Shown: piece after piece, positions 6,531-38,574 of the stretch | How positions within the stretch are numbered: the first letter of the stretch is position 1 | Layout: each line of letters begins with the position of its first letter | Source: Deltaproteobacteria bacterium | GTDB taxonomy: Bacteria; Myxococcota_A; Polyangia; Polyangiales; JADJMO01 | Reading direction: 5' to 3' | Assembly: GCA_016182965.1 (NCBI GenBank) | Contig: JACPFM010000006.1 | Coordinates: 9,160 to 73,159 of the forward strand | DNA: 64,000 nucleotides | Notes under the pieces: generated by a model | Databases searched by the model: none | The model's input: only the letters and a program-made list of their open reading frames with translations | What the model was told of the DNA's origin: nothing | Translations under genes and position numbers: made by a program

Positions 6531-7907
6531 GTGGCGATGACGCGATGCCGTCGACTACACTCCGCCGAGGCCATGTCCCCCGAGCCTTCGGCGTTGCCCG
6601 TCGATCACGTCGCGGCCGGCAAGTGGCGCGTCGTGCGGCTGATCGCCAGCGGCGGGATGGGCAGCGTGTACGAGGCCGAGCACCTGCGCACCCATGGGCG
6701 CGTGGCCCTCAAGGTCCTCAACGACGACGCGAGGCGCGACCCCTCTTCGCGCACGAGGTTCGAGCGCGAGGCGCGCGCCACGGGCCGGCTCCGTAGCCGC
6801 CACGTCGCGCGGGTGCTCGACGTCGACACGCTCGAGGACGACACCCCCTTCCTGGTGATGGAGCTGCTGGCCGGCCGCGATCTGTCGCGCGAGGTCAAGG
6901 AGCGTGGAGCGCTGCCGGTGGCGGAGGCCGCGGCGATCGTCGTGCAAGCGGCCGCCGGCGTGGCCGAGGCGCACGCCGCCGGGATCGTCCACCGCGATCT
7001 GAAGCCGGCGAATATCTTCCTCTCCGAAGAGGGCGCGCAGCGCGTCGCCAAGGTGCTCGATTTCGGCATCTCCAAGGTGCCGACCGAGGGCGACGAAGAG
7101 GAGATCACGCGCACGCTCGCGACGGTCGGAACGCCTGGGTACATGTCGCCGGAGCAGATTCGCGCGCCGCGCGACGTCGACGCCGCGACCGACGTGTGGT
7201 CGCTCGGCGTCATCCTCTACCGGCTGCTCGCGGGGCGCGTGCCCTTCTCCGGCAACTCGTCGTCGGTCGCGGTGGCGATCTGCCACGACGCGCCGCAGCC
7301 GATCGGCGCGATGCGCGGCGACGTGCCGGCCGAGGTCCTCGCGCTGGTCGACGCCGCGCTGCAGAAGGACAAGGCGTTCCGCCCGACGCTCCGTGAGCTC
7401 GCCGACGTCCTCGTCGAGCACGTCGGCGACGGCGCCCTGGCCGCGGTCGCCCGCGAGGCGCACGCCGAGCTCGGCCGGATCGCGGGGCTGCCGGCGAGCT
7501 CCGGCGTGCTCTTGCGACCGGTGGTGTCGCATCCGGAGGTTGCCACCGTCGCGATGAACGCGATCGTCGAGCCTGCCGCTGCCCCGGCGTCGCGCCGACG
7601 CGCGCTCTTCGTGACCGCGGGCGTGCTCCTGACGGGGTGCGCGCTCGCGCTGTTCGGGCTGACCCGCGGCTCGCGGACCGCCGCGAACGACGCGCCGACG
7701 GCCGCGCCGACGCACGCTTCGCCGATGCCGTCGATCAGCGTATCGTCGGCCGCCTCCGCGAGCGCCGCACCACCGCCCGCGTCGCCCTCCGTCTCCGGTG
7801 TCGCGTCCGTCGCAGGTGCGTCGGCGTCCCCGTCCTCGAAGCCCAAGCCCCTGGCCGCCACCACCCATGCTCCCAAAGCCCCGGCGCAGCCCCCGCCTCG
7901 CCTCTGA
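6531..7907 (+). CDS. Hanks-type Ser/Thr protein kinase with C-terminal TM helix and Pro/Ala/Ser-rich tail
   Basis: 'HRDLKPANIF', 'DFGISK', 'GTPGYMSPEQ'. Alternative starts are GTG 6531, ATG 6537 and ATG 6573. Divergent from the FHA activator gene. Confidence 0.9.
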   Translation: MAMTRCRRLHSAEAMSPEPSALPVDHVAAGKWRVVRLIASGGMGSVYEAEHLRTHGRVALKVLNDDARRDPSSRTRFEREARATGRLRSRHVARVLDVDTLEDDTPFLVMELLAGRDLSREVKERGALPVAEAAAIVVQAAAGVAEAHAAGIVHRDLKPANIFLSEEGAQRVAKVLDFGISKVPTEGDEEEITRTLATVGTPGYMSPEQIRAPRDVDAATDVWSLGVILYRLLAGRVPFSGNSSSVAVAICHDAPQPIGAMRGDVPAEVLALVDAALQKDKAFRPTLRELADVLVEHVGDGALAAVAREAHAELGRIAGLPASSGVLLRPVVSHPEVATVAMNAIVEPAAAPASRRRALFVTAGVLLTGCALALFGLTRGSRTAANDAPTAAPTHASPMPSISVSSAASASAAPPPASPSVSGVASVAGASASPSSKPKPLAATTHAPKAPAQPPPRL

Positions 7908-25352: not shown

Positions 25353-26642
25353 TCAACCGCGTCGCGCCGGCCCCTGCCGAGCGCGCCTGCCGGGGAAAGC
25401 GATCCGCGCCGCCAACGCGAGGCTGGCCGCCGCGACCAGCAGGAAGATCACTGCAACGCCGATCCACCCCCTTCGCAACGCATCCATCGCGAGGGCGCCG
25501 ACGGACACGGCGACGGCCACGCAGATCGTGGTCAACAGGACACGCGGCAGGGGCTCCCAGATCATCGACGGCATCGGTCGGCGGCGCTCTTCGGTCTCGC
25601 GCTCGCGGTCGATGCGCGCCCGCGAGGGACCGCGGAAGCGGATGGACCACGCGACGGTGTCGCCGCTGCCGGCGCGATAAGGAGCGCCGCGCGGCACGGG
25701 GCGGTACGCACGCGCGTCGGCGGAGGCGCCGGGAATCGACGCGCCGCGGGTGCCGTCGAGCGCGCACTCGCGCGGGCACCGCAGCTCGTCCTCGCCTTCG
25801 AGGCTCGCGCCACACGAGGGGCAGCGCGGCTCGCGCGCGATGACCTCGAGGCGAAGCGCACCGATCCGCTGCTCGTCGCCGCGGCGGAACGGAACGTCGA
25901 CGGAGAGCGGCGCCTCCGCGCGCTCGTCGTCGGCGACGTCGTGCGCATGAACGGCGATCCGCGACCAGACCTCGCTCGGCGCGGTCGCCTCGGCACCGCA
26001 AGCGCACGCGATCTCGGACCCGAACGTCGGATCCAACGCGTGCCCGCAGAACGGGCAGGCGATCCGTAGCGTGATCTCGCCCCACAGCGTCCGCATCGGA
26101 GGTGGCGGCGCGACGTCGACCGTCCGAGCGACCGAGAGGCACGCCCGGAACGTGCGCGGGTCGATGGCCGGCGAGAGGCACGTCGTCGGGCCCCACGGCT
26201 CGACCCTCGCCGGCACCGGAGTCGGGCCGGTCATCGACGCCTCGACGTAGCGGCGCCTGCGCTCGAGGATCGCGGCACGCGCCGCCGGGCGTGACGCCGG
26301 GGCCGCGCCGGGGAGCGTGTCGAGCACGTCTTCCATCCACTCGACGCCCGCGCCGAGCGCTTCGTCGCGCGGCAGCGCCAGCGCAATCCAGAGGACCTCG
26401 TCGTCGACGCCGAGCTCCAGGGGCTGCTCGACGCCATCGACGCTGAAGCCGGGCGCCGCAGCGATCGCGTGTCGCGCCCGGTCGAGCGCGGCCGACGCCC
26501 CGGAGGCCTCGAGCGCAACGGCTCCGAGCACGTGCTCGGCGCCGCTCGCGGCGTCGCGCACGACGAAGACGCGGCCGCGTTCCTCGATCGCGCGCACGTC
26601 GACGAACCGACTCGAGAGGACGCGACCGCTCGGGAGATCCAC
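25353..26642 (-). CDS. Hypothetical protein with Zn-ribbon-like Cys motifs and C-terminal TM helices
   Basis: 'IACPFCGHAL..IACACG', 'RCPSCGASLEGEDELRCPREC'. C-terminal TM helices 'VLLTTICVAVAVSVGALA' and 'IGVAVIFLLVAAASLALA'. High GC3. Follows the kinase gene by 26 nt. Confidence 0.7.
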   Translation of the reverse strand: MDLPSGRVLSSRFVDVRAIEERGRVFVVRDAASGAEHVLGAVALEASGASAALDRARHAIAAAPGFSVDGVEQPLELGVDDEVLWIALALPRDEALGAGVEWMEDVLDTLPGAAPASRPAARAAILERRRRYVEASMTGPTPVPARVEPWGPTTCLSPAIDPRTFRACLSVARTVDVAPPPPMRTLWGEITLRIACPFCGHALDPTFGSEIACACGAEATAPSEVWSRIAVHAHDVADDERAEAPLSVDVPFRRGDEQRIGALRLEVIAREPRCPSCGASLEGEDELRCPRECALDGTRGASIPGASADARAYRPVPRGAPYRAGSGDTVAWSIRFRGPSRARIDRERETEERRRPMPSMIWEPLPRVLLTTICVAVAVSVGALAMDALRRGWIGVAVIFLLVAAASLALAARIAFPGRRARQGPARRG

Positions 26643-26668: not shown

Positions 26669-27556
26669 TCACCGCACGATCCCGAGCGCGCTCTCGTACG
26701 CGTCGGAGAACGCGCGCGGCGTCGGGAAGCGACGGTCGATGGCGCGGGCGAAGGCGCGGGCGAACACGCCGTCGATCGCGCGCGGAAGCGAGGGCATGAT
26801 CGTCGTCGGGAGCTTGAACTCCGCCTCGCAGACGTGGATGAGCACCTCGCGCGTCGAGCGCCCGGTGAACGCGTCCTTCGCGAGCAGGCTGCGGTAGGCG
26901 AGGCACGCGAGCCCCCACACGTCGGCGCGCTCGTCGACGATCTCGCCGCGCGCCTGCTCGGGGCTCATGTTCATCGGGGTGCCGAGCACGATGCCGTTCG
27001 AGGTGTGGTGCCGGCAGAACGGCTGCATCCCCGGCGCGCCCCTGGCGAGCCCGAAGTCGATCACGCGCGCGATCATCCGCCCGTCCTCGCGCGTCAGCAG
27101 GACGTTGCCGGGCTTCAGGTCGCGGTGGACGATCCCCACGGCATGCGCCACGGTCAGCGCGCGCGCGACGTGGCGCACCACGCGCGCCGACTCCTCCGGC
27201 ACGAGCGGCCCCTGCTCGATGCGGTCCTCGAGCGAGATGCCCTCGTAGAGCGGCATCACGAGGTACGGCCTTCCGAAGTACAAGCCCTCGTCGACCACCG
27301 GCACGACGTGGTGGGTCCTGCGACCGAGCAGACCGCCGAGCCGCGCCTCGAGCTCGAAGCGGGAGACGGTGTCGTCATTCAGCCCACACAGCGGGGCGAG
27401 GAGCTTCATCGCGAACTCCTGATCGATCGCGAGGTGACGCACCGCCCAGACCTCGGCCATGCCGCCGCGCGCGATGCGCCGGGCGGCTTCGTACCGCCCG
27501 TCGATGAAGTCGCCGGGCAGCAGCTTCAGCTTGGCGTCGAAGGCTACCGCGGTCAT
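26669..27556 (-). CDS. Hanks-type Ser/Thr protein kinase (kinase domain only)
   Basis: ATG 27556 (MTAVAFDAK). 'GGMAEVW', 'HRDLKPGNVLL', 'DFGLAR', 'MSPEQ'. Confidence 0.9.
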   Translation of the reverse strand: MTAVAFDAKLKLLPGDFIDGRYEAARRIARGGMAEVWAVRHLAIDQEFAMKLLAPLCGLNDDTVSRFELEARLGGLLGRRTHHVVPVVDEGLYFGRPYLVMPLYEGISLEDRIEQGPLVPEESARVVRHVARALTVAHAVGIVHRDLKPGNVLLTREDGRMIARVIDFGLARGAPGMQPFCRHHTSNGIVLGTPMNMSPEQARGEIVDERADVWGLACLAYRSLLAKDAFTGRSTREVLIHVCEAEFKLPTTIMPSLPRAIDGVFARAFARAIDRRFPTPRAFSDAYESALGIVR

Positions 27557-27587
27557 GCAACCCCGCCGGTGCAACCGCTGTGCGAGA

Positions 27588-27944
27588 TCAAGCCGCGGTG
27601 GCCAGGGAGCGGAGCCGCTCGACGAGCTCACGCGGACTGAACGGCTTGGTCACGTAGTCGACGGCGCCGAGGCTGCGCGATCGCGCAAGGTAGGCGTGCT
27701 GGTGCATCGAGGTGACCACGACGGCGCGCACGCCCGCCCCGCGGATCTCGCGCAGCAGATCGAGGCCGTGGCCGTCGGGCAGCTCGAGCTCGAGGAGCAG
27801 CAACGTGATCCGCTCCTCGAGGATCGCCTCGCGAGCCTCGCGCAGAGTGGCCGCGGTCCTCACCTCGAAGCCTGCTCGCGCCAGCGTCGCCGCGAGGACG
27901 GTGCGCGCGGTCAGGTCGCCGTCCACGACGAGCACCTTCGACAC
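27588..27944 (-). CDS. Stand-alone response-regulator receiver (CheY-like)
   Basis: GTG 27944 sits a few nt downstream of 'gaaggagg'. 'VLVVDGD', phospho-acceptor context 'LLLLELELPDGHG', 'VVVTS', 'DYVTKPF'. No output domain. Confidence 0.85.
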   Translation of the reverse strand: MSKVLVVDGDLTARTVLAATLARAGFEVRTAATLREAREAILEERITLLLLELELPDGHGLDLLREIRGAGVRAVVVTSMHQHAYLARSRSLGAVDYVTKPFSPRELVERLRSLATAA

Positions 27945-28130
27945 TGCATGCCTCCTTCGAGAGGGGTCACCACGACGCGTCGCAAGGGACGTGCCCCGCG
28001 CGCGACTCCCTGCAGTCGGCGCGCGCGTTCGCAACAGGTGCGTCGCGTCGCGCCTGGTCGTTCTGGATCGTCTCTCGATCGTGAAGGGTCGCCCGCGCCG
28101 CGGCGGGCGATGCCTCGTCCACCGTCGATC

Positions 28131-28145
28131 TGGCTCGTTGGTTGC
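28131..28145 (+). promoter_or_regulatory. Sigma-54 (-24/-12) promoter candidate for the EPS operon
   Basis: 'TGGCTCGTTGGTTGC' versus consensus TGGCACG-N4-TTGC: TGGC, C6, G7 and TTGC all match with exact GG-N10-GC spacing. It lies only ~20 nt before ATG 28165, which implies a very short leader. Confidence 0.5.
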
Positions 28146-28164
28146 GTGAGCGACCGTCAAAGCG

Positions 28165-29361
28165 ATGGCCCAACCAAAGCGGCACTGCGCGACGAGAGCC
28201 CTCCGGGCGTTGATCGCCTTCGCCTCTTTGCTCGCGGCGCTCGCGGCTCCGCGCCTTGCGCATGCAATCGGCGCCGCCGGCGACGCGGCGGGCCAGGCGT
28301 TCCGCGTCGCGCAGGATCACGCGCGCGCAGGACGTTGGGACGAAGCGATCGCCACCTATCGAGCGATGCTCGCCACCGACCCCCGCAACGTCGACGCACG
28401 CGCCGGCCTCATCGACGTGCTCATCTGGGATCGACAGTTCGACGCCGCCGATCGTGAGCTCGACGTCGGGCTGACGCTCGCGCCGAAGGCGCCCGCACTG
28501 CTTTCGCGGCGCGCGCGTCTGCTGCACCTGCGCGGCGAGACCGCTCGCGGACGGCCCTACCTCACGCGCGCGGAGGAGCTTTCGCCTGGAGACGACGAGC
28601 TGTTGCTCATCGGTGACCGCATGTGGCTCGGCGAGGCGAGGCTGCGCGTCCGCAACGACTTCTTCCCCAAGGGCTGGGACGATCTGCCCGCCGCGGAGCT
28701 GTCGATCCTGCAGCGCGCGGGGCGCTTCGTCTTCGGCGCCCGCACCGAGCACTCGCGGCGCTTCGCGACCGCCTACGGGGCGCGCGCCTACAACGCCTTC
28801 TACGCCGGCTCGATCGCCTACTCGATCGCCGTCGGTTGGGTCGCGGGCGTGGAGGTCGGCTTCGGCGCGCCGGCGCGCGCGATCCCCGACGCGCTCGTGC
28901 GAGGGTCGCTGTACTTCCCGCTCGTCGGGCGGCTCGACGGTTACGCGGCCTACTCGTGGTTCCGCTACCCGAACGACATCGCGGTCAACATGCTGAACCC
29001 CGTCCTCGGCTTCCAGCTCACCGATCAGCTCCGCGTCGACGCGCGCTACTGGATCGCGCGCGTCGGCGCGCCAGGCACCGAGACCGACCTCGTGCACTCG
29101 TACGGCGGTCACGTCGCCTATCGGCCGGTCCGTCGACTGGCGTTCGACGCGTTCTACGTCTACGGCGCGCAGCTCGATCGCCTGCCGAACACGGCCCAGC
29201 TCGGCGCCATCCGCTCGCACATCATGACGGGCGCGATCGACCTCCTCGTCGTGCGCGAATTCGGGCTCCGTCCGCTCTACGAATTCGAGATCCGCAAGAA
29301 CCCGCGGGGCGACGTCATCCACATCCATGCCGTCGAGCTCGCCGTCTACGCGAGGTGGTGA
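28165..29361 (+). CDS. Outer-membrane protein: N-terminal TPR plus YaiO-like beta-barrel
   Basis: Signal 'LLAALAAPRLAHA'. TPR 'WDEAIATYRAMLATDPRNVDARAGLIDVL'. Alternating beta-strand C-terminal half ending in an aromatic residue, 'VELAVYARW'. Confidence 0.7.
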   Translation: MAQPKRHCATRALRALIAFASLLAALAAPRLAHAIGAAGDAAGQAFRVAQDHARAGRWDEAIATYRAMLATDPRNVDARAGLIDVLIWDRQFDAADRELDVGLTLAPKAPALLSRRARLLHLRGETARGRPYLTRAEELSPGDDELLLIGDRMWLGEARLRVRNDFFPKGWDDLPAAELSILQRAGRFVFGARTEHSRRFATAYGARAYNAFYAGSIAYSIAVGWVAGVEVGFGAPARAIPDALVRGSLYFPLVGRLDGYAAYSWFRYPNDIAVNMLNPVLGFQLTDQLRVDARYWIARVGAPGTETDLVHSYGGHVAYRPVRRLAFDAFYVYGAQLDRLPNTAQLGAIRSHIMTGAIDLLVVREFGLRPLYEFEIRKNPRGDVIHIHAVELAVYARW

Positions 29362-29364
29362 CCC

Positions 29365-30561
29365 ATGTGGAGACGATGGGGCGATTACCTCTACGCGATC
29401 ACGGTCCTCGTGGTCTTCGGCGCCGAAGCGCTGGCCCTGGCCGCGCTGTCGCTCGCGTTCTTCGCGCGACTGCTCGGGCTCCTGCCGTACACGCGGCTGC
29501 TCGCGATCCTCACCTGGGTCGTGATCCTCACCTGCGTGTCGCTAGCGGTCGTCATGCAGCACGTGCTCGTCTACTACGCGGCGAGTGCGTGGCGCGAGCG
29601 AACGCGCAGGGAGCGCTCGACGGAGTGGACGGAGCTGTTCGTCCGATGGCTGTTCGATCGCACCACGCCGGTCCCGCAGCGTCTCCCGCGTGAGGCCGTC
29701 GACGCGCTGCTCGACCTGCGCGAGACCATCCGTGGCGAGGACGGCGCCGCGATCGGCGAGCTGATCGAGCGTCTCGGCATCGGCGCACGCCTGATGGCGC
29801 GCACGCGCTCCCACAACTTCGCGACCCGGCTGCAGGCGGTCGAGGGGCTCGCCAAGGCGCGCCTGCCGAGCGCGCTCGACGCCGCCTTCCAGCTGCTCGA
29901 CGATCAATCGGCGGTCGTGCGCTTCATGGCCACGCGCGTGATCGCGCGCACGCTCGCGTCGCTGCCGCCGGGCGAGGAGCGCGAGCGCCAGGCGCTGCGG
30001 CTCGCCGAGCGGCTGCGCGTGACCGACCTGCCGACCGGCGTGGTGGAGGAGGCGCTGCTGCTGCTCGACGACGCGGCCGAGCCGGTGGTGCGCGTGCTCC
30101 TGCAGCACGAAGGCACGCGGCCGAAGATCGTCCGCGCCGCGCTCGACGCCGCCGGGAGGCTCGATCTGTCGCGCCTGTCGGATCTGGTCGCGCGGTTCCT
30201 CACGCACCCCGACGCGGAGCTCCGCGCCGCGGCGCTGCAGTGCGCGCCCCGACTGCACCTGCCGCCGGAGGCGATCGCGGACACCATCACGAAGGCGGCC
30301 GAGGAGCCGATCGAGTTCGTCCGCGTGCAGGCGACGCGCGCGCTGGCGATCATCCCGCAGTCGCGCGCGCTGCCCTGCCTGTGGGTGCGGCTGCACGACG
30401 CCTCGTGGTGGGTGCGTCGCGCCGCCGCGGAGACGCTGCGCGGGCTCGGCCCGGCCGGCGTCGCCGTGCTTCGCCGCGCCGACGAGCGGCACCCGGATCG
30501 CTTCGCCCGGCAGATGGCGCACCACATCCTGACCGAGGCGCGCCTCGCGGAGGTCCCATGA
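29365..30561 (+). CDS. Membrane-anchored HEAT-repeat protein
   Basis: Three N-terminal TM helices, then HEAT-like units ('RLQAVEGLAKARLPSALDAAFQLLDDQSAVVRFMATRVIA', 'DASWWVRRAAAETLRGLG'). Confidence 0.75.
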   Translation: MWRRWGDYLYAITVLVVFGAEALALAALSLAFFARLLGLLPYTRLLAILTWVVILTCVSLAVVMQHVLVYYAASAWRERTRRERSTEWTELFVRWLFDRTTPVPQRLPREAVDALLDLRETIRGEDGAAIGELIERLGIGARLMARTRSHNFATRLQAVEGLAKARLPSALDAAFQLLDDQSAVVRFMATRVIARTLASLPPGEERERQALRLAERLRVTDLPTGVVEEALLLLDDAAEPVVRVLLQHEGTRPKIVRAALDAAGRLDLSRLSDLVARFLTHPDAELRAAALQCAPRLHLPPEAIADTITKAAEEPIEFVRVQATRALAIIPQSRALPCLWVRLHDASWWVRRAAAETLRGLGPAGVAVLRRADERHPDRFARQMAHHILTEARLAEVP

Positions 30562-31994
30562 GCGTGCTCCTCACGATCACGCTGGCGTTCCAGTACGTGG
30601 TGCTCGCGTACTTCGCGGTGCTCAACCTGGCCTACACGCTGTTCGGCTACCTCGGGCTCCGCAGCATCGTGGTCTACACGCGCGAGCTGTCGCAGATGAC
30701 GCTGCGCGATCTGCTGGCGCGCGAGAGCTACAAGCCGGTGAGCATCCTCGTGCCGGCCTACAACGAGGAGAAGAGCATCGTCGCGAGCGTGCACTCGTTC
30801 CTCGGCCTTCGCTTCCCCGAGTTCGAGGTGGTGGTCGTCTCGGACGGCTCGACCGACCAGACGATCCCGAAGCTCATCGAGGCGTTCGCGCTGGTGGAGA
30901 TCCCGGCGGTCTACTGCCGGACGCTCCCTTCGGCGGCGATCCGCCGCATGTTCCGGTCGCTCGAGCACGGCAACCTGGTGGTCCTCGAGAAGGAGAACGG
31001 CGGCAAGGCCGACGCGCTCAACGCCGCGATCGACGTCGCGCGCTACCCGCTCATCTGCTCGGTCGACGCCGACTCGCTGCTCGACGCCGACGCGCTGCTC
31101 CGCGCGACCCGCCCGTTCCTCGAGGACGACGACGTGATCGCGATCGGCGGCACGATCCGGCCGCTCAACGGCGCCACGATCGTCGACGGACGGGTCACCG
31201 CGCTGTCGATGCCCAAGGGCTGGCTCGAGCGCCTGCAGATCCTCGAGTACACACGCGCGTTCTTCAGCGGCCGCGCGGGGTGGAGCCACTTCGACGCGCT
31301 GTTGATCATCTCCGGCGCGTTCGGCGTCTTCCGGCGCAGCGCGGTGATCGAGGCGGGCGGCTACCTCGTCGGCACGGTCGGCGAGGACATGGAGCTGGTG
31401 GTGCGCCTGCATCGCCGATACCGCGAGCTGCGCCAGCGCTACCGCATCCTCTTCACGCCGGATCCGATCTGCTGGACCGAGGTGCCCGCCGATCTCGGGA
31501 CGCTCCGCCGCCAGCGCAACCGCTGGCACCGCGGGCTGTGGGAGACGCTGTGGCACCACCGCTCGCTGATGTTCAACCCGCGGTTCGGGCGCCTCGGCAC
31601 CGCGGCGTTCCCCTACTTCCTCGTGTTCGAGGGCGTGTCGCCGATCGTCGAGGCCATCGGCTGGGTGCTCATCCCGACCACCTTCGCGCTCGGCATCTTC
31701 AACGGTTGGTTCGCGATCCTGTTCCTCGCGCTGTCGGTGCTCTACGGCGTGCTCCTCTCCCAGCTCGCCGTGGGCATCGAGACGCTGCTCTTGCAGCGCT
31801 ACCCGCGGCTCCGCGATCGCCTGATCCTGTTCGCCGCCGCGTTCCTCGAGTTCGCGGGCTACCGGCAGATCCTGGTCCTCGAGCGCTGCCTCGCGACGGC
31901 GCAGGTGTTCCGCAAGCGCGGCGTGTGGGGCCACATGCAGCGGCAGGGCATCGCCGAGGAGCCCCGTGACAAGGCGGCGGAGGCGGCGCAATGA
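30558..31994 (+). CDS. Processive family-2 glycosyltransferase (PgaC/IcaA/NfrB-like polysaccharide synthase)
   Basis: ATG 30558 overlaps the previous stop. 'ILVPAYNEE', 'VVVVSDGSTD', 'SVDADS', 'GEDMEL', 'QRNRWHRG' (QxxRW). TM helices flank the catalytic domain. Confidence 0.9.
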   Translation: MSVLLTITLAFQYVVLAYFAVLNLAYTLFGYLGLRSIVVYTRELSQMTLRDLLARESYKPVSILVPAYNEEKSIVASVHSFLGLRFPEFEVVVVSDGSTDQTIPKLIEAFALVEIPAVYCRTLPSAAIRRMFRSLEHGNLVVLEKENGGKADALNAAIDVARYPLICSVDADSLLDADALLRATRPFLEDDDVIAIGGTIRPLNGATIVDGRVTALSMPKGWLERLQILEYTRAFFSGRAGWSHFDALLIISGAFGVFRRSAVIEAGGYLVGTVGEDMELVVRLHRRYRELRQRYRILFTPDPICWTEVPADLGTLRRQRNRWHRGLWETLWHHRSLMFNPRFGRLGTAAFPYFLVFEGVSPIVEAIGWVLIPTTFALGIFNGWFAILFLALSVLYGVLLSQLAVGIETLLLQRYPRLRDRLILFAAAFLEFAGYRQILVLERCLATAQVFRKRGVWGHMQRQGIAEEPRDKAAEAAQ

Positions 31995-33256
31995 AACGCG
32001 CGGTCGCGCTGCTGCTGTTCTTGGCCGGCTGCTCGCAGCCGACACCGGCGCACGGCCCGCGCGACATCCTCGATCCGGTCCCGTGGGACTCGTACGCCGC
32101 GTACGACGAGCTCGGCGCGGTGCGGAAGGTCAGCGGGTGCGCGCTCGACTGCGGCGCGGTCGTGTCGTTCCGCATTCCCATCGATCACCCGCTCGCCGCG
32201 GATCTGGCCGGCCGGTCGTTCGTCTACGACGACGCCCTGGCGATGCTCGTCCACCTCGCCGAGGGCCGCCCCGATCGCGCGCGCGCCATCGGCCGCACGC
32301 TGGTCGCGCTGCGGAACAGCGACGGGACCATCGGCTTCTCCTTCGACTTCGAGCGGACGGCGTTCGTCGACGCGCGCTACGTGCGGGCCGGCGTCGTCTC
32401 GTGGGCGGCCTACGCGCTCGCCACCTACGCCCTCTCGACCGGTGAGGACGTCTTCCGGACCGAGGCGCGCGCGTTCGCGGACGCGCTGCTCGCGGCGCGC
32501 GTCGACGCCCAGGGCGATCCGCGGCACGGCCTGATCGCGGCGGGGCGCGGCCGCTACCTCGACGGTCGCGTCTTCGACGGCGCGTTCATCGCCGACTACG
32601 CCGTCACCGAGCACCAGATCGACGCGTACTTCCTGTTTCGCACGCTGCACGCGCTCGATCCGCAGGGGCCGTACGGGGCCGCGGCCGACGCCCTCGCGCA
32701 GGCGCTGATCCGAGCCGCGTGGATCGACGAGGAATCGGTGTTCGCCGCCGGCGTCGGTCGCGCGGGCCCGACCGCCGATCGCGCGCTCGACGCCGCGGGC
32801 GCGTGGGGCGCGACCCTGCTGCTCGCGGTCGGCGAGGACGAGCGCGCGCGACGCTCGCTCACCGCGACGCGCACCCGCTTCACCGTCTACGTCGACGGAT
32901 ACGCCGGGTTCGCGCCGTACGTCGGGGTCGTATCCGATTACAGCGGCGCGGATCTCTCCGGCACCTTCTTCTCCGAGGGCACCGCGGGGATGGGCGTGCT
33001 CTTCGCGCGCTTCGGGATGCAGGCGGAGGCGCGCTCGATCGGAAGGACGCTCGGCAGGCTGCGCGCGAAGAACGAGGGGGCGATCCCCTACGCGTTCCCC
33101 GAGTCCCGCGACTTCCCCGAGCTGCCCTCGGCGGCGCCCACCGCGTGGCTGCGCCTGCTCGAGCGGGAGCTCGCCGGCGCGCCGCCCATGGTGCTCGCGG
33201 TGCCGCCGCACCCGTCCCCGCTGCTGACCGCCTTGCTCGGGAGGACCCGGCCATGA
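31991..33256 (+). CDS. Lipoprotein of unknown function (possibly an alpha/alpha-toroid glycan-binding or hydrolase fold)
   Basis: Lipobox 'LLFLAGCS'. ATGA overlaps on both sides. Helix-rich sequence ('YDDALAMLVHLAEG', 'SWAAYALATYAL'). The functional guess rests on operon context only. Confidence 0.6.
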   Translation: MKRAVALLLFLAGCSQPTPAHGPRDILDPVPWDSYAAYDELGAVRKVSGCALDCGAVVSFRIPIDHPLAADLAGRSFVYDDALAMLVHLAEGRPDRARAIGRTLVALRNSDGTIGFSFDFERTAFVDARYVRAGVVSWAAYALATYALSTGEDVFRTEARAFADALLAARVDAQGDPRHGLIAAGRGRYLDGRVFDGAFIADYAVTEHQIDAYFLFRTLHALDPQGPYGAAADALAQALIRAAWIDEESVFAAGVGRAGPTADRALDAAGAWGATLLLAVGEDERARRSLTATRTRFTVYVDGYAGFAPYVGVVSDYSGADLSGTFFSEGTAGMGVLFARFGMQAEARSIGRTLGRLRAKNEGAIPYAFPESRDFPELPSAAPTAWLRLLERELAGAPPMVLAVPPHPSPLLTALLGRTRP

Positions 33257-35286
33257 TCGCCACCCGCACCTCGCACCGTGGGCCAAGCCCCCGGACCCCT
33301 GCGCTCCTTTCCCTCGCGCTCGTGCTCGCGGCCGTGCCGCTCGCCGGCTGCTCGGGCGGAGACGGCGACGACGACGGCTCCGACTCCGGCCTGCCCTTCG
33401 GCAATCCGGTGGTGATCCCGCCGACCCACGTGAAGTGCGATCTCGACGGGATCCACGCCGAGCTGAAGAACAACGTCCTCGTCGGGCTCCCGACGAAGGA
33501 GGTGCCCGTCCTGCCGCCGGTGGTCACCCCGCAGACGACCAAGACCCCGCCGGAGCAGCACCACCGCAAGCTGGTCGGCATCCTCAACATCTCGCCGAAC
33601 ATCCGCGACTCGCAGGCGCTCGAGCACCTCCTCAAGCCGGTGGGCATCCCCTACGCGATCACGACGTCGCCGAAGCTCTCGTGGCAGCACGATCTGACGA
33701 TCTTCTTCCCCGAGGCGTATCCGGAGAACTTCGACGCCGACGAGCTCTCGACGCTGCGGATGTACTTCGACCTCGGCGGCACGCTGATCATGAAGGCCAA
33801 CGAGGTCACCGCGTTGAAGCAGCTCGGCGGCGTCACCAAGACGACCTTCAAGCTGCCGCACTTCCGCGTCGACCTCACCGAAGCCGGCAAGCGCGAGTTC
33901 CCGAGCCTCGATCACCCGCACGAGCAGACCTTGCCGTTCGGCGGCACCGCGACCGAGTTCCTCAACACGTGGTCGCTCGAGGTCGCGGCCGGGGCCGAGG
34001 TGCTCGCGCGGTTCGACGACGGCAGCGCGGCGATCGTGAAGAACAAGGTCGGCACCGGCACCGTGTACACGTTCGGCGTCGACTGGCGCGATCTGATCAT
34101 CCGAAACCAGCTCGGCTACCCGCTGGGCGGCGCGCGCAGCTACATCAACAGCTTCGAGCCGGCGACCGACGCGTGGATGCTCATGGTGCGCGACATCTAC
34201 GATCGCGTCGTGCAGTTCGGTGTGCGCCTGCACACCGCGCCCAACGGTGCGCGCGCCGCGCTGCTGCTCACGCACGACCTCGACTGGGGGCCGAGCTACG
34301 AGAACGGCGTCATCTTCGCCGCCGACGAGCGCGCACGCGGCGCGAGCTCCACGTTCTTCTCCCACACGAAGGTCGTGCGCGACGCGCAGGACGAGGCGTT
34401 CTTCAAGCCCGATCGTGCGCCGATCCTCGCGCGGTTCCTCGAGCTCGGGGCGACGGTCGGATCGCACACCGTCGCGCACTCGCGGATCATGGAGACGTTC
34501 CCGATCGGCGACGGCGCCGAGCTGTACCCGCAGTACTCGCCGGTCAACGTCACGAAGTTCGACACCACCGGCGGCACCCTGTTCGGCGAGGGACGCGTCT
34601 CCAAGAGCTTGATCGACGCCTACCTCGACCTCTGCAGCGTCAAGCACGAGGTGGTCTCGTTCCGCTCCGGTCACCTGCGCTTCCACGCAGCGCACGCCGA
34701 GACGCTCGAGCGACTCGGCTACCGCTACGACAGCTCGCGCGCGATCGGAGAGGTGCTGACCAACTTCCCGTTCCGCATGATGACCAACTGGCCCGAGGCG
34801 AACGACACCAGCATGTTCGAGTTCCCGGTCACGCTCGAGGACGAGCTGCCCCCGCGCCTCGATCTTCGCGTCGCCGAGATGCGCGCGATCGTCGCGGCCA
34901 ACGCCGACAACGGCGCGCCGACGACGTTGCTCATCCATCCGAACGTCACCGACTACAAGCTCGAGGCGCAGCAGCACCTGGTCGCGACGCTACCCCCGGG
35001 GGTCGTCGCGATGGGGCTCGAGCCCTTCGGCGAGTTCTGGCGGGCGCGCGACGAGGTCCACATCGACGCGGTCGACTACGACTGGATGGCCGAGAAGGTC
35101 ACCGTGAAGCTGACGCCGCGCCTGCCCATCGCCGGGCTCGCGCTGCGCGTCGGCAGCGAGATCGACGCGGTGGAGGCCCCCGCCGCCGCTCGTTACGTGC
35201 GCTCCCCCGACGGCTCCGGTCTGGTCACGCTGCCGCCGCTGCCGGCCGCGACGCAGTCGTCGGTGGTCATGCACTTCAAGCGGTGA
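33253..35286 (+). CDS. Polysaccharide deacetylase (NodB-homology) lipoprotein with large N-terminal domain
   Basis: Lipobox 'VPLAGCSG'. NodB-like motifs 'LLLTHDLDWG', 'GSHTVAHSR', 'LLIHPN'. Confidence 0.8.
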   Translation: MIATRTSHRGPSPRTPALLSLALVLAAVPLAGCSGGDGDDDGSDSGLPFGNPVVIPPTHVKCDLDGIHAELKNNVLVGLPTKEVPVLPPVVTPQTTKTPPEQHHRKLVGILNISPNIRDSQALEHLLKPVGIPYAITTSPKLSWQHDLTIFFPEAYPENFDADELSTLRMYFDLGGTLIMKANEVTALKQLGGVTKTTFKLPHFRVDLTEAGKREFPSLDHPHEQTLPFGGTATEFLNTWSLEVAAGAEVLARFDDGSAAIVKNKVGTGTVYTFGVDWRDLIIRNQLGYPLGGARSYINSFEPATDAWMLMVRDIYDRVVQFGVRLHTAPNGARAALLLTHDLDWGPSYENGVIFAADERARGASSTFFSHTKVVRDAQDEAFFKPDRAPILARFLELGATVGSHTVAHSRIMETFPIGDGAELYPQYSPVNVTKFDTTGGTLFGEGRVSKSLIDAYLDLCSVKHEVVSFRSGHLRFHAAHAETLERLGYRYDSSRAIGEVLTNFPFRMMTNWPEANDTSMFEFPVTLEDELPPRLDLRVAEMRAIVAANADNGAPTTLLIHPNVTDYKLEAQQHLVATLPPGVVAMGLEPFGEFWRARDEVHIDAVDYDWMAEKVTVKLTPRLPIAGLALRVGSEIDAVEAPAAARYVRSPDGSGLVTLPPLPAATQSSVVMHFKR

Positions 35287-35403
35287 CGGCCCCGTCGCCC
35301 CGCGCGTTCGTCGCACCCGCATCGGTTGCGCCGGCGCGAGGGCGACGATCGGCCGCATCGCGCGAGGTGCGATGGCGCGCGCGATGCACGACATCCGACC
35401 ACC

Positions 35404-37206
35404 ATGACCTCGGATCCAGACGATGGGACGCGCGCGGTCATCCTCGCGCCCACGGCGATCGAGGCCCACCAGACGCCCAGGAAGGTCGAGTTCGCGGATC
35501 TCCCGCGCGTGGTGCAGGACCGGTTCGTCGCGGCGACCGAAGAGACGTTCCCACCGTGGCCGATCCTGCGCGCGCACGCCCGTGCTCCCGCCTCGCGTGG
35601 CTGGACCTTGGTCGCGATCGGCGCCGTGCTGGCCTTGATCGCGCTCGTCCTGCCGGGGTTCGGTGATCCGTTCTCGACGCTGGCGACGCACCCACGCTGG
35701 GCGCTCGGGCTGTTCGCGGTCCTCGTGGCGCTCGCGGTGCTCGGGGCGCCGCGCGCGCTCGCCGCGCACGGCGCGCGCGATCTGCCGTTCCGTGCGGGCG
35801 TCTACGTGTTCCCGAGCGAGCTCGTCGACGCGCGCACCCCGACGCTCTGGATCCACCCGCTCGGCGAGCTGCGGTCCATCGAGACCGGCGCGCGCACGAT
35901 CCGTCTGCACTTCCGCGGCGGTCGGGCGTACGCGTTCGACGTGCCGGAGCTCGAGACCGCCGAGTCGGCGGTCGCGCAGGTGCTCCGCGCGCGCGAGGCG
36001 CTCGAGCAAGGCGGAGACGCGCCGTCGCTCCTCGGGCTGGTCGATCCGCTCTTCGAGCCTACGGAGGGGCCGCCGATCGCGCTGGCAGCCCCCTTTCGCG
36101 TGCGCTGGTCGTTCTGGGTGCAGCGGCGCGCCGGCGTCACCGTCGCCGCGGCGCTGATCCTGGGGCCGCTGGCGTTCGTCGCGCGCGACACGTACAGCGA
36201 CCGCGCGGCGTTCGCCAAGGCCGCCGCGGGCTCCGACCCGGCGGCGCTGCGCGCGTACGCGGATCACGGCAGGCGGCACGTCGCCGAGGTTCGCGGCCGG
36301 CTGCTCCCGCTCGTCGAGCTCCGCGCGCTCCACGACACCGCCGCGATCGAGCGCTGGATGCGCGATCACCCGGTCGCCGCGGCGACGGACGAGGCGAAGG
36401 ACGCCCGGCGGGCCGCGCTCTCGCGCGACGCCGCGCGGCTGTCGACGTTGGCCGCGATCCGCGCCTACGCGGCCGCCCACGCCGGCGACGGTCCGCAGGT
36501 GGAGGCCGACATCACCGAGGCGCTGCGCAGGCTGCACGCCCGTGTGACGTCGTCGCGGGTCGGATCGGTCGCGATCGAGCAGCTGCTCGGCCAGCCGTCC
36601 GCCTGCGGCACGGGCGTCGCGATCGAGATCGTGCGCGGCTCGGGCAACCTTCGAAAGGCCGATCGCGCGGTCTCGGAGTCGCGGCGCTTCGCCGGGAGCG
36701 CCTCGTTTCCGTCTCTTCACCTCACCGCCGCGCCCGGCCCCGAGCGCGAAGCGCGCGAGCTGATCGCGGCGCGCATCGGCGCCGTGTTCCCCGAAGGGTG
36801 CCTCGTCGCGGCGAGAGCCGCGCCGGCGATCGCGGCGACAGCCGCGCCGGCGATCGGTGTCCGGACCGCGACCCTGCGCCTCACCTGGACGCCGCGCTTC
36901 GCGGGGACGGTGCGCACGTCCAACGCGCCGCCGGCGGTGTTCGCGGACCTCGCGTTCGACGTCGACATCCGGCTGCTCGGCCAAGACGGCCGGGCGCTCT
37001 CGCATGCGCGACGGACCATCGGCGCCTCGGTCACCGACGCGAGCCTCACCGCGTACGCCTCGCTCGTCAGGCAGAGCCCGTTCGACGACGCGATCGAGCG
37101 CGGCGCGTACGAGGACGTGCTCCTCCGCGTCCTGACGGTCGCCGCGCGCGACGCGGCCACCTGGCTTCTGGGCGAGGAGCCCACGTCGCCGGTGGCGCCG
37201 CTGTGA
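35404..37206 (+). CDS. Hypothetical membrane protein
   Basis: ATG 35404. TM helices 'GWTLVAIGAVLALIALVL', 'ALGLFAVLVALAVLG' and 'GVTVAAALILGPLAFVA'. High GC3 throughout. No motif recognised. Confidence 0.65.
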   Translation: MTSDPDDGTRAVILAPTAIEAHQTPRKVEFADLPRVVQDRFVAATEETFPPWPILRAHARAPASRGWTLVAIGAVLALIALVLPGFGDPFSTLATHPRWALGLFAVLVALAVLGAPRALAAHGARDLPFRAGVYVFPSELVDARTPTLWIHPLGELRSIETGARTIRLHFRGGRAYAFDVPELETAESAVAQVLRAREALEQGGDAPSLLGLVDPLFEPTEGPPIALAAPFRVRWSFWVQRRAGVTVAAALILGPLAFVARDTYSDRAAFAKAAAGSDPAALRAYADHGRRHVAEVRGRLLPLVELRALHDTAAIERWMRDHPVAAATDEAKDARRAALSRDAARLSTLAAIRAYAAAHAGDGPQVEADITEALRRLHARVTSSRVGSVAIEQLLGQPSACGTGVAIEIVRGSGNLRKADRAVSESRRFAGSASFPSLHLTAAPGPEREARELIAARIGAVFPEGCLVAARAAPAIAATAAPAIGVRTATLRLTWTPRFAGTVRTSNAPPAVFADLAFDVDIRLLGQDGRALSHARRTIGASVTDASLTAYASLVRQSPFDDAIERGAYEDVLLRVLTVAARDAATWLLGEEPTSPVAPL

Positions 37207-37245: not shown

Positions 37246-38573
<1,328 letters not shown>

Positions 38574-38574
<1 letters not shown>

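Follow-up and report, generated by a model that had tools for sequence, protein, structure and literature searches.

The locus at 28165-35286, together with the divergent genes beside it, looks like a new form of the synthase-type biofilm-polysaccharide machines. It lies in the 64-kb stretch of deltaproteobacterial DNA analysed here, referred to as the window. The favoured reading, given a probability of about 0.55, is a synthase-dependent exopolysaccharide machine with a receiver–HEAT–GT2 core, in which the receiver acts via the HEAT protein and the two divergent operons are σ54-driven. A core of receiver, membrane HEAT protein and polymerising family-2 glycosyltransferase (GT2) recurs in several bacterial phyla, and no published account of it was found in the papers searched. 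The locus comprises the following features:

26669-27556, minus strand: Hanks-type Ser/Thr kinase, 296 aa, kinase domain only (Pkinase 1e-25; HRDLKPGN and DFG motifs)
27588-27944, minus strand: single-domain pseudo-receiver, 118 aa (Response_reg 1e-20; GTG start preceded by GGAGG)
27981-27996, minus strand: σ54-type -24/-12 element GGGCACGTCCCTTGCG, upstream of the receiver–kinase operon (motif search, alignment)
28131-28146, plus strand: σ54-type -24/-12 element TGGCTCGTTGGTTGCG, upstream of A (2 mismatches; ends 18 nt before the ATG)
28165-29361, plus strand: A, secreted TPR and YaiO-family β-barrel protein, presumed outer-membrane export porin (profiles, signal peptide)
29365-30561, plus strand: B, inner-membrane 2-TM HEAT-repeat protein, presumed synthase co-subunit (HEAT_2 7.5e-18, topology prediction)
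30558-31994, plus strand: C, membrane-embedded processive GT2, the synthase (Glyco_tranf_2_3 1e-22, motifs)
31991-33256, plus strand: D, (α/α)6 six-hairpin glycosidase-fold lipoprotein, presumably a hydrolase that trims the polymer in the periplasm (lipobox LAGC, predicted structure)
33253-35286, plus strand: E, three-domain lipoprotein deacetylase with a NodB fold (lipobox LAGC, predicted structure, homologues)
35326-37206, plus strand: X, membrane protein assigned to no family (3 predicted TM segments; probable start ATG 35404)

The A–E operon and its products

Genes A to E are five co-directional open reading frames that form a sugar-polymer secretion operon. The TGA stop of A is followed by a 3-nt gap (CCC) and the ATG of B, while three ATGA overlaps join B to C, C to D and D to E; GC3 is 0.89-0.97 across all five genes. 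Gene structure and coding signal thus bear out the original prediction of five tightly coupled genes, and the domain and fold assignments agree with its description of a synthase-type operon for a TPR-barrel in the outer membrane, a processive GT2, a deacetylase and a membrane subunit with HEAT repeats.

C contains the motifs D96, D170xD172, G-E-D (275-277) and QRNRW (319-323), with TM helices at both its N- and C-terminal ends. Its top NCBIfam match is PgaC_IcaA (130 bits; cut-off 422), followed by an XrtG-associated glycosyltransferase, NodC (59 bits) and CelA. Residues 53-396 align to BcsA 134-467 in an end-to-end alignment, and hyaluronan synthases align as well, with the TM region and the QxxRW finger covered. 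Identity is 51-65% to actinobacterial orthologues and 79-89% inside the lineage. Processive GT2 enzymes of the PgaC/BcsA-like class polymerise a UDP-sugar and extrude the chain via their own membrane channel, and C would probably do the same. The sugar is most likely an N-acetylhexosamine, and the polymer would then be β-linked.

The presumed co-subunit B has two N-terminal TM helices and a predicted cytoplasmic HEAT domain, with basic residues following TM2. Its N-terminus, MWRR, is conserved in the family alignment, Glu21 is nearly invariant inside the first predicted TM helix, and the HEAT domain carries the motifs GDxSWWVRRAAA and HPDRFAR. PgaD and IcaD likewise have two membrane helices in an N-in topology. 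B may be the obligatory synthase co-subunit. The cytoplasmic HEAT solenoid could then provide a docking surface through which the receiver would switch the synthase. Fusions of receiver to HEAT or of HEAT to GT2 were not seen.

Lipoboxes on D and E and a signal peptide on A (ending AHA) indicate that all three act outside the cytoplasm. A contains TPR repeats (Pfam TPR_19, 1.9e-10) and a barrel-type C-terminus (...LAVYARW). Its assignment to the YaiO family is presumed, with matches below the cut-off for the window protein itself (Pfam 9e-4; TIGR04390 3.7e-6). All four A orthologues tested match TIGR04390, one of them (L049, 60% identical to A) above the cut-off (43.6 bits, 3e-11). The positional equivalent in Cognatilysobacter is a bona fide TPR-YaiO protein (TIGR04390, 131 bits), and that in L055 is 24% identical over residues 53-358 (1.5e-13). 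A would be a candidate for carrying the polymer across the outer membrane.

The model of E (pLDDT 92) shows three domains: one GATase1-like, as found in CBM87, one catalytic with a NodB-type (β/α)7 fold, and a β-sandwich at the C-terminus. The best PDB fold match of E is Agd3 (6nwz, 6.5e-15 over 745 columns), ahead of the GH42 middle domain/ThuA, NDST1, 3rxz and ArnD. E itself has no Pfam match, homologues bear PF01522/PF08532, and the H-x3-H motif is where the E profile matches 2iw0, a CE4 chitin deacetylase. H341, D342, H405 and R471 are invariant and D344, H409 and H562 nearly so, a pattern compatible with the NodB motifs. The predicted NodB-type deacetylase was therefore correct in fold and motifs, but E is not a plain NodB/CE4 enzyme. 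E may strip part of the N-acetyl groups in the periplasm.

D has no sequence match in Pfam or the PDB. Foldseek places its model (pLDDT 92) next to MmpH (7qsj, 1e-8), GH100 invertases, GH76 and AGE epimerases in the PDB. D80, E207, H208, D211, E248 and D267 are invariant, and the domain family has 1431 representatives, phage tail-fibre fusions among them. The modelled fold suggests that D trims or releases chains, but D could instead be a binding or epimerase-type protein. D had earlier been listed as an unknown lipoprotein extra to characterised systems; given its (α/α)6 glycosidase fold, it instead fills the place that a periplasmic glycosidase-type protein usually has in such systems. The HEAT-repeat membrane subunit, also described as foreign to them, retains that status.

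Distribution of the core and its regulatory partners

The kinase, the receiver and A-B-C-D-E are syntenic in all six loci of the myxobacterial-type lineage (53-89% protein identity). More broadly, a B-family HEAT gene lies directly upstream of the GT2 gene in 52 of 52 fetched loci. Among the first 47, a receiver gene is found directly upstream on the same strand in 33, mostly from Actinomycetota, plus Thermus and Bacterium HR12, with a gap of 1-71 nt in all but four; the other 14 have no adjacent receiver. Diderm versions add a TPR protein, in the order HK-REC-TPR/YaiO-HEAT-GT2 in Cognatilysobacter, HEAT-GT2-TPR in Fibrobacterota and deacetylase-TPR barrel-HEAT-GT2 in L055. Conservation as a neighbourhood holds for HEAT–GT2 and, inside the lineage, for the full set; the deacetylase is missing in many actinobacterial relatives. 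Some actinobacterial relatives contain a sugar-nucleotide 4-epimerase-type gene, and one a UDP-sugar dehydrogenase.

In monoderm relatives, HEAT and GT2 occur alone, with or without the receiver, and export and modification genes are absent. This arrangement, and the NodC match of C, would suit a GT2 whose product is not a secreted high-molecular-weight polymer but a short oligosaccharide or a glycan bound to the envelope; Nod-factor-like chito-oligomers, a glycan of the periplasm and a component of the spore or cell wall would be examples. NodC works with the NodB deacetylase. Such a product is very unlikely here: NodB acts in the cytoplasm, whereas D and E are lipoproteins outside it, an outer-membrane TPR-barrel is co-transcribed, and C aligns over its whole length with the channel-forming BcsA and hyaluronan synthases.

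The flanking genes are as originally described, namely the receiver, the upstream kinase and a second kinase at 37246-38574 on the plus strand; receiver and upstream kinase are two separate genes. A gap of 31 nt separates the receiver gene from the upstream kinase gene, which follows it within one transcription unit and whose product has no TM segment or sensor domain. An orthologue (56-61% identity) occupies the same position in five of five related loci, while the downstream kinase is retained in only one of five. Sequence comparison identifies the single-domain receiver, and not the kinases, as the conserved regulatory partner of HEAT–GT2, the upstream kinase being lineage-specific. Alignment with CheY and module-linked receivers shows Glu at the phospho-acceptor Asp site of the window receiver and an acid pocket of D-G instead of the usual D/E-D. 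All six lineage receivers have 'DGD ... LLELELPDGHG', whereas Asp is retained in 33 of 33 other module-linked receivers, so that the Glu site is confined to the kinase-bearing lineage.

The ancestral core may have consisted of three genes, whose products are a single-domain receiver, a HEAT protein with two TM helices, and a processive GT2 of the PgaC/BcsA-like type; the receiver would have become a pseudo-receiver in the myxobacterial lineage. There, control has probably moved from His-Asp phosphotransfer to phosphorylation on Ser/Thr, as the pseudo-receiver shares a transcription unit with the gene for a soluble Hanks kinase. RitR/StkP of Streptococcus pneumoniae is an example of an Asp-less receiver controlled by a Hanks kinase. 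RitR is a DNA-binding regulator, unlike the locus receiver, which has no output domain and is encoded beside a polysaccharide synthase module.

Most relatives have a normal Asp receiver, with histidine kinases or GGDEF-EAL proteins encoded nearby; in 13 actinobacterial loci, a PAS-GGDEF-EAL gene directly adjoins the GT2 gene. Cyclic di-GMP may therefore be an input to the module, perhaps the main one, and HEAT or GT2 could bind it. Pfam and NCBIfam searches detected PilZ, GGDEF or MshEN domains in none of the five operon proteins, and the surroundings of the six myxobacterial-type loci are free of GGDEF, EAL and PilZ genes. The proposal of control by Ser/Thr phosphorylation rather than c-di-GMP is supported in part: it keeps its upstream kinase–receiver pair (6/6) but loses the downstream kinase, and c-di-GMP may still contribute.

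Gene X, without Pfam or NCBIfam profile matches, has a homologue (46-48% identity) in four of five other lineage loci, located after E or beyond the kinase, and is only loosely associated with the locus.

σ54-type elements between the divergent operons

A strong σ54 promoter match had been noted, but in the window alone such matches are at chance level (16 found, 13.2 expected). It is their conservation in 6/6 loci that argues that the promoters are real, and there are two divergent elements, not one. An equivalent of the plus-strand element with GG-N10-GC lies shortly upstream of the first ATG of A in all six loci, at 15-19 nt in five; that of L049, TGGCTCGTGGGTTGCG, is nearly identical to the window element. 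The minus-strand element corresponds to an invariant block, GCAA.G...G.GCC, 26-41 nt ahead of the receiver start in 6/6 loci, in an alignment with a mean column identity of 39%. The chance of matches on both strands is 0.0007-0.009 per intergenic region. If both operons are read from σ54-type promoters, they require an enhancer-binding protein encoded elsewhere; the only one within the window lies 22 kb off. In the five loci with only 15-19 nt between the plus-strand element and the ATG, there is hardly room for a leader, an unusual arrangement.

Four compact loci have the two elements arranged as an inverted repeat, GCAAGG-N24-CCTTGC, which could be one operator. Myxobacterial genomes encode very large numbers of kinases and the downstream kinase is clearly unconserved, so the receiver–kinase pair might be an independent neighbour and the σ54-like blocks a shared operator for another regulator. 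This explanation is considered quite unlikely. The gap between the elements varies (6, 26 or 134 nt) while the GG-N10-GC spacing is fixed, and each element stays close to its own start codon, which fits two promoters and not one operator. Furthermore, the kinase–receiver pair is kept throughout the lineage, receiver adjacency to HEAT–GT2 is held across phyla, and the window receiver is nearer to module-linked receivers (36-49% identity) than to CheY (27%).

Relation to known polysaccharide systems

The parallel drawn with pga/ica is apt, as the synthase-dependent layout is shared. Like PgaABCD/IcaADBC, which produce poly-β-1,6-N-acetylglucosamine, the locus combines a processive GT2, best matched by the PgaC/IcaA family, with a small partner of two TM helices encoded beside it, a lipoprotein de-N-acetylase in the periplasm, an activity of the glycosidase type and a TPR and β-barrel exporter. 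A one-to-one mapping is conceivable (A as PgaA, B as PgaD, C as PgaC, and E and D as the two halves of PgaB), and the PgaC_IcaA match of C and weak TPR matches of A to PgaA models point the same way. The locus might then be an ordinary PNAG-type system in which HEAT replaces PgaD, c-di-GMP acts at the synthase or co-subunit, as the GGDEF-EAL neighbours of the 13 actinobacterial loci would allow, and receiver and kinase act on transcription or other targets. This is regarded as rather unlikely. Every component falls short of the pga/ica family cut-offs, and by a wide margin: C scores 130 bits where PgaC requires 422, and A scores 23 bits where PgaA requires 367. The barrel belongs to the YaiO and not the PgaA family, the deacetylase has Agd3 architecture, and D, the glycosidase-type protein, is a lipoprotein of its own with an (α/α)6 fold, whereas the C-terminal domain of PgaB is a (β/α)8 barrel. 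The HEAT domain of about 300 aa on the partner and the receiver as conserved regulatory neighbour are further differences. The module receivers lack a DNA-binding output domain, which makes it difficult to see them acting on transcription alone, and their genes overlap or nearly overlap the HEAT gene, suggesting co-translation. The myxobacterial-type loci also lack nearby c-di-GMP genes.

With NfrA/NfrB and BcsA/BcsB/BcsC/BcsZ, the locus shares an inner-membrane processive GT2 and a TPR-containing outer-membrane exporter; in the cellulose system, BcsZ is in addition an (α/α)6 glycosidase of the periplasm. NfrB and BcsA carry their own c-di-GMP modules (MshEN and PilZ, respectively), unlike the locus proteins. 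Neither the Nfr (phage N4 receptor glycan) nor the Bcs system is known to include a HEAT partner or receiver.

The suggested E. coli counterpart exists as the uncharacterised yaiO-yaiX-yaiP-yaiS, where a YaiO-family outer-membrane barrel is encoded close to a GT2 gene and a gene of the deacetylase type, but the resemblance is limited. YaiP is 26% identical to C over 246 residues, a generic GT2 level, YaiS is PIG-L and not NodB, YaiO has no TPR repeats, unlike A, and the neighbourhood contains no HEAT protein, receiver or (α/α)6 protein.

The bacterial Agd3-like clusters reported by Bamford et al. 2020 (PMC7229062) encode a cytoplasmic glycosyltransferase, a multi-TM protein, GH114 and Pel-like outer-membrane parts, without GT2, HEAT or (α/α)6 protein. 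Agd3 itself (CE18/CBM87), from the Aspergillus galactosaminogalactan system, is composed of a GATase1-like domain, a distorted (β/α)7 deacetylase and a β-sandwich (PMC7229062). E shares this three-domain plan with no match to Agd3 at the sequence level. Its motif is H-D-x-D in place of D-D, and its metal Asp and His are separated by 61 residues, a CE4-like distance, compared with 132 in Agd3 (D378 to H510, β2 insertion).

Gene layout and the synthase

Positions 28165–35286 are filled by five open reading frames in the same direction, A to E, from which a receiver gene and a kinase gene diverge.

Genes of the locus and its flanks
26669–27556, minus strand: Hanks kinase of 296 aa, its gene 31 nt downstream of the receiver gene in the same operon
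27588–27944, minus strand: receiver of 118 aa with a receiver fold (Response_reg, 1e-20)
28165–29361, plus strand: A, signal peptide ending in ...LAHA, TPR_19 (1.9e-10), C-terminal half with sub-threshold YaiO matches
29365–30561, plus strand: B, conserved MWRR start, two TM helices, HEAT_2 (7.5e-18)
30558–31994, plus strand: C, GT2 with D96, DxD170–172, GED275–277 and QRNRW319–323, TM helices at both ends
31991–33256, plus strand: D, L-A-G-C lipobox, predicted (α/α)6 six-hairpin barrel
33253–35286, plus strand: E, L-A-G-C lipobox, three-domain model (pLDDT 92)
35326–37206 (probable start 35404), plus strand: X, membrane protein with three predicted TM segments
37246–38574, plus strand: second kinase, downstream of the operon

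The stop of A (29361) is followed by the start of B at 29365, and ATGA overlaps join B to C at 30558, C to D at 31991 and D to E at 33253. These coordinates and overlaps, together with a GC3 of 0.89–0.97 across A–E, confirm that the five tightly coupled genes of the original prediction are real; no terminator-like site was present at any gene end inside the operon. The G+C content of the window is 71%, and the closest named relatives of its proteins belong to Polyangiales and Polyangiaceae. Five related loci (L010, L048, L049, L052 and L053), which together with the window represent one lineage, keep the kinase and receiver genes divergent from A-B-C-D-E in the same order, with 53–89% protein identity.

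Protein C shows the motifs and TM helices of the processive, membrane-embedded GT2 enzymes of synthase-dependent exopolysaccharide systems and aligns over its full length with BcsA and hyaluronan synthases (HAS). Its top curated family is PgaC/IcaA (TIGR03937), and its score of 130 bits stays below the equivalog cut-off of 422 bits. GT2 enzymes of this class polymerise from a UDP-sugar and translocate the chain. They invert the anomeric configuration, and the polymer made by C should therefore be β-linked. From the nearest families, PgaC/IcaA and NodC, and from the dedicated de-N-acetylase we infer an N-acetylhexosamine as the probable substrate. PgaD and IcaD have two TM helices and an N-in topology, and the HEAT-repeat protein B has this topology too.

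Protein A of the window scores below both YaiO cut-offs, with 19.7 versus 23.9 bits for PF19413 of Pfam (9e-4) and 27.1 versus 32 bits for TIGR04390 (3.7e-6). TIGR04390 is matched by all four A orthologues tested, and the L049 orthologue (60% identical) exceeds its cut-off with 43.6 bits over model positions 21–230 of 230. The Pfam YaiO model matched one of four orthologues, and BLASTP and hhalign comparisons of A with TPR-YaiO of Cognatilysobacter and with the TPR protein of Fibrobacterota aligned the TPR part alone. The barrel assignment of A is therefore based on TIGR04390 and on L055, a metagenomic locus with an A-like barrel. The C-terminal end of the A family reads ...LAVYARW. With the TPR_19 match, the signal peptide and the TIGR04390 matches of the orthologues, the operon has the features of a TPR-containing outer-membrane β-barrel exporter, the window protein itself being sub-threshold.

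Protein X has no family match in Pfam or NCBIfam. Homologues with 46–48% identity occur in four of the five other lineage loci, either behind E or past the kinase position, and from this conservation X may be linked in function with the operon. The downstream kinase, previously read as a control element flanking the locus, is conserved in one of these five loci and was rejected as a member of the system. The kinase 26669–27556 is adjoined by a 429-aa ORF (25353–26642, minus strand) whose product ends in two TM helices. Its match to the domain of unknown function DUF7575 stays below the cut-off (19.2 versus 28.5 bits, E 7.7e-4); no homologue of this ORF was found in the related loci.

Conservation and relation to known systems

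For a wider survey, one genome per species was scanned with an alignment of the HEAT family, supplemented by contig look-ups. In all 52 loci the HEAT gene is followed directly by a GT2 gene, whose product is 37–65% identical to C. Of the first 47 loci, 33 carry a same-strand single-domain receiver immediately 5' of the HEAT gene, with a gap of 1–71 nt in all but four of them. The receiver-bearing loci come mainly from uncultured Actinomycetota, and also from Bacterium HR12 and a Thermus MAG with the order TPR protein-REC-HEAT-GT2. In the cultured Cognatilysobacter bugurensis KCTC 23077 the gene of a CHASE3-PAS hybrid histidine kinase is followed by those for the receiver, TPR-YaiO (131 bits for TIGR04390), HEAT and GT2. 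A Fibrobacterota MAG has the order HEAT-GT2-TPR protein. L055 (10001–15994 of a 56%-GC metagenomic contig) encodes relatives of E (a deacetylase, 36% identical) and of A (a TPR barrel, 24%) together with HEAT and GT2 (41%); neither a D-like gene nor an adjacent receiver was found in it. Judged from its gene content, L055 is a second diderm lineage with a deacetylase. The neighbours in monoderm loci include histidine kinases and, in one case, a UDP-sugar dehydrogenase. In seven monoderm loci a NAD-dependent sugar epimerase gene lies upstream in place of the receiver.

The neighbourhoods across these loci define receiver-HEAT-GT2 as the core. Diderm loci add a TPR protein, and the TPR-YaiO barrel is confirmed in three lineages. 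The deacetylase was added in at least two lineages, and the (α/α)6 lipoprotein occurs, among the loci surveyed, in the window lineage only. The HEAT–GT2 pair stands in all 52 loci, but many of the actinobacterial ones have no deacetylase.

The parallel with pga/ica holds for the working scheme, which is alike, but the locus failed every test for membership in pga/ica. In addition to the low TIGR03937 score of C, protein A reaches 23 bits for the PgaA porin (TIGR03939, cut-off 367 bits) with its TPR part only, and neither D, an (α/α)6 protein, nor E matches the PgaB family (CE4 + GH153 lipoprotein). E. coli yaiO-yaiP-yaiS shares the barrel family and the general theme, but orthology to yaiP and yaiS was rejected on sequence comparison. 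The reported bacterial Agd3 clusters have synthesis and export genes unlike those of the locus (PMC7229062). In the literature searched, no paper described HEAT-GT2 or receiver-HEAT-GT2 as a system, and only the Agd3 work surfaced. The class of machine is familiar, and the putative co-subunit, the proposed coupling to a receiver and the probable rewiring to a pseudo-receiver and kinase are unfamiliar.

Control of activity and transcription

The window receiver is 36–49% identical to module-linked receivers and 27% identical to CheY. It carries Glu at the position of CheY D57 and D-G in place of the acid pocket (CheY D12, D13). The phospho-acceptor Asp and acidic pocket of canonical two-component receivers are thus missing in all six lineage loci, which share the pattern DGD...LLELELPDGHG; the Asp is kept in all 33 other module-linked receivers. 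Loss of the phospho-acceptor coincides exactly with the presence of a co-operonic Hanks kinase gene. The pseudo-receiver is probably a substrate or partner of this kinase, and the lost Asp together with the co-operonic kinase gives the best support for the predicted Ser/Thr control.

The gating signal of most characterised exopolysaccharide machines of the synthase-dependent type (cellulose, alginate, PNAG, Pel, Nfr) is c-di-GMP. Searches for PilZ, MshEN and GGDEF domains in A–E gave no match, as had been noted, so that C and its partners lack a recognisable domain of c-di-GMP-gated synthases. Cryptic c-di-GMP binding occurs at the PgaC–PgaD interface, and by analogy A–E may bind the nucleotide in a similar way. 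The proposal that Ser/Thr phosphorylation acts rather than c-di-GMP is supported in part, by the pseudo-receiver and its Hanks kinase in the window lineage; c-di-GMP may still be an input. In 13 actinobacterial loci (L001, L004, L022, L023, L025, L026, L028, L030, L033, L036, L037, L041 and L042) the HEAT-linked GT2 gene has a PAS/CHASE-GGDEF-EAL gene at a distance of less than 5 kb, mostly directly downstream.

The level established in this analysis comprises the parts list, the predicted compartments and the co-inheritance of the parts. In the mechanism proposed, C would polymerise a UDP-sugar, probably an N-acetylhexosamine, and move the chain across the membrane, E would deacetylate part of the chain, D would trim it and A would export it. 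The HEAT protein B would be an obligatory co-subunit of the synthase, and the receiver would dock on its cytoplasmic solenoid. The input would be Ser/Thr phosphorylation in the window lineage and His-Asp phosphotransfer elsewhere, possibly with c-di-GMP. Tentatively, and with a probability of roughly 0.3, the two-TM HEAT protein may represent a new class of synthase co-subunit that couples phosphorylation of a stand-alone receiver directly to GT2 polymerisation, alongside or instead of c-di-GMP, and that was rewired to a Hanks Ser/Thr kinase via an Asp-less pseudo-receiver in one myxobacterial lineage. If true, a widespread synthase that is always paired with a HEAT protein, and usually with a bare receiver, would provide a second signalling logic for the biofilm matrix, in which the machine itself is the target of phosphotransfer. 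The HEAT protein would then be a new type of accessory subunit for synthases, and the lineage would offer a natural case of a two-component receiver turned to Ser/Thr-kinase control. The module is carried by many uncultured soil Actinomycetota, by Thermus and by at least one cultured gammaproteobacterium, and this occurrence makes the idea directly testable.

A σ54 promoter match had also been predicted. The element at 28131–28146 (plus strand) has two mismatches to the σ54 consensus, and the number of σ54-like matches in the window (16 versus 13.2 in shuffles) is not above chance, but the element is conserved: in all six loci a GG-N10-GC element is located upstream, at a short distance from the first ATG of A. 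A second element is found on the other strand 26–41 nt before the receiver start, also in all six loci (27996 to 27981 in the window, GGGCACGTCCCTTGCG), and this minus-strand element is the sole invariant block of the intergenic alignment (mean column identity 39%). Both strands thus carry putative σ54-dependent promoters, GG-N10-GC with flanks of the TGGCAC-N5-TTGCW type and two to three mismatches, in each of the six loci. The two elements are 6, 26 or 134 nt apart, and this variable spacing favours two promoters over a single palindromic operator. In Markov simulations, both-strand matches occurred in 0.07–0.9% of equal-size regions, values that cannot be multiplied across loci, as the loci are related. 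A sigma-70 scan found nothing.

From the end of the plus-strand element to the ATG of gene A there are 15–19 nt in five of the six loci; in L053, the element is immediately followed by one ATG and, about 14 nt further on, by another. No Shine-Dalgarno sequence was found in this stretch (28146–28165 in the window and its equivalents in L010, L048, L049, L052 and L053), and the short leader without such a sequence implies a nearly leaderless gene A transcript. The window's closest match to the σ54 consensus, with one mismatch, falls in the gap between the receiver and kinase genes (27570–27585, minus strand, TCGCACAGCGGTTGCA); it was rejected as a σ54 site, because the mismatch abolishes the essential -24 GG. 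The sole enhancer-binding protein within the window is of the FHA-domain type (5142–6497, minus strand; FHA and Sigma54_activat domains, GAFTGA) and is encoded 22 kb away, divergent from a Hanks kinase gene at 6531–7907 (plus strand). It is a candidate activator of the σ54-type promoters of the locus.

The lipoproteins E and D

Sequence searches against PDB chains were useless for D and returned short CE4 and GH42 matches for E, so that fold comparison was needed. The window E has no Pfam match, including PF01522; of its 72 homologues, seven match PF01522 and some match PF08532. The homologue alignment shows strict conservation of H341, D342, H405 and R471 and near-strict conservation of D344, H409 and H562. 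The E profile aligns its GSHTVAH segment with the MT2 H-x3-H motif of the CE4 chitin deacetylase 2iw0 (5.7e-4). The best full-length PDB match of the E model is Agd3 (6.5e-15), and the domain-wise fold matches are the GH42 middle domain and ThuA (GATase1 fold), NDST1, a mycobacterial polysaccharide deacetylase and ArnD.

Agd3 consists of a GATase1-like CBM87 domain, a distorted (β/α)7 CE domain and a β-sandwich (PMC7229062). The modelled E shares the three-domain plan of this CE18 enzyme, with a CBM87-like α/β/α domain, a (β/α)7 CE domain and a β-sandwich. In Agd3, however, the metal Asp is separated from the first His by 132 residues (D378 to H510, with a β2 insertion) and CM1 reads D-D, whereas E has a spacing of 61 residues and H341-D342-x-D344, i.e. 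D-x-D. E also has no phmmer or profile match to Agd3 6nwz. E thus lacks the sequence hallmarks of CE18 (D-D in CM1, more than 120 residues from CM1 to CM2, homology to Agd3) and is not a CE18 member at the sequence level. The assignment as a NodB-type deacetylase was probably right in substance, given the motifs and the 2iw0 match, but the architecture is Agd3-like. Homologues about 52% identical to E can stand alone, as in the locus L054, and membership in the E family is therefore not by itself a marker of the system.

Protein D has only 35 homologues by word index, and its sequence matched nothing in Pfam, NCBIfam or PDB. The AlphaFold model calculated from its homologue alignment (pLDDT 92) is an (α/α)6 six-hairpin barrel, and among PDB folds it comes closest to the polysaccharide hydrolase MmpH, GH100 invertases, GH76 mannanases and AGE-type epimerases (E about 1e-8, TM 0.55–0.6). 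Periplasmic glycosidase-type parts of such systems are BcsZ, the C-terminal domain of PgaB and PssZ. Given the modelled fold and the wide occurrence of the domain, D is most likely the usual part of this type, and not an extra outside the characterised systems, as had been supposed.

A full profile search retrieved 1431 representatives of the D-domain family, which is covered by no Pfam model. Fusions of the domain with CBM30, β-helix and RHS modules and with the N-terminus of lambda-type side tail fibres also occur. D itself matches E. coli phage tail proteins with 27–31% identity and, by fold, a viral model with TM 0.69. This occurrence in phages and modules fits a polysaccharide-degrading or polysaccharide-binding domain, possibly one with a depolymerase or receptor-binding role that has gone unrecognised; the large family may represent a new group of polysaccharide depolymerases. 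In lambda-type side tail fibres the domain takes the C-terminal position, and it is also present in a tail protein of an E. coli Stx2k phage and in a protein of a jumbo phage; the phage records are OQ243220.1 (42799–44616) and OP557969.1 (67360–68757).
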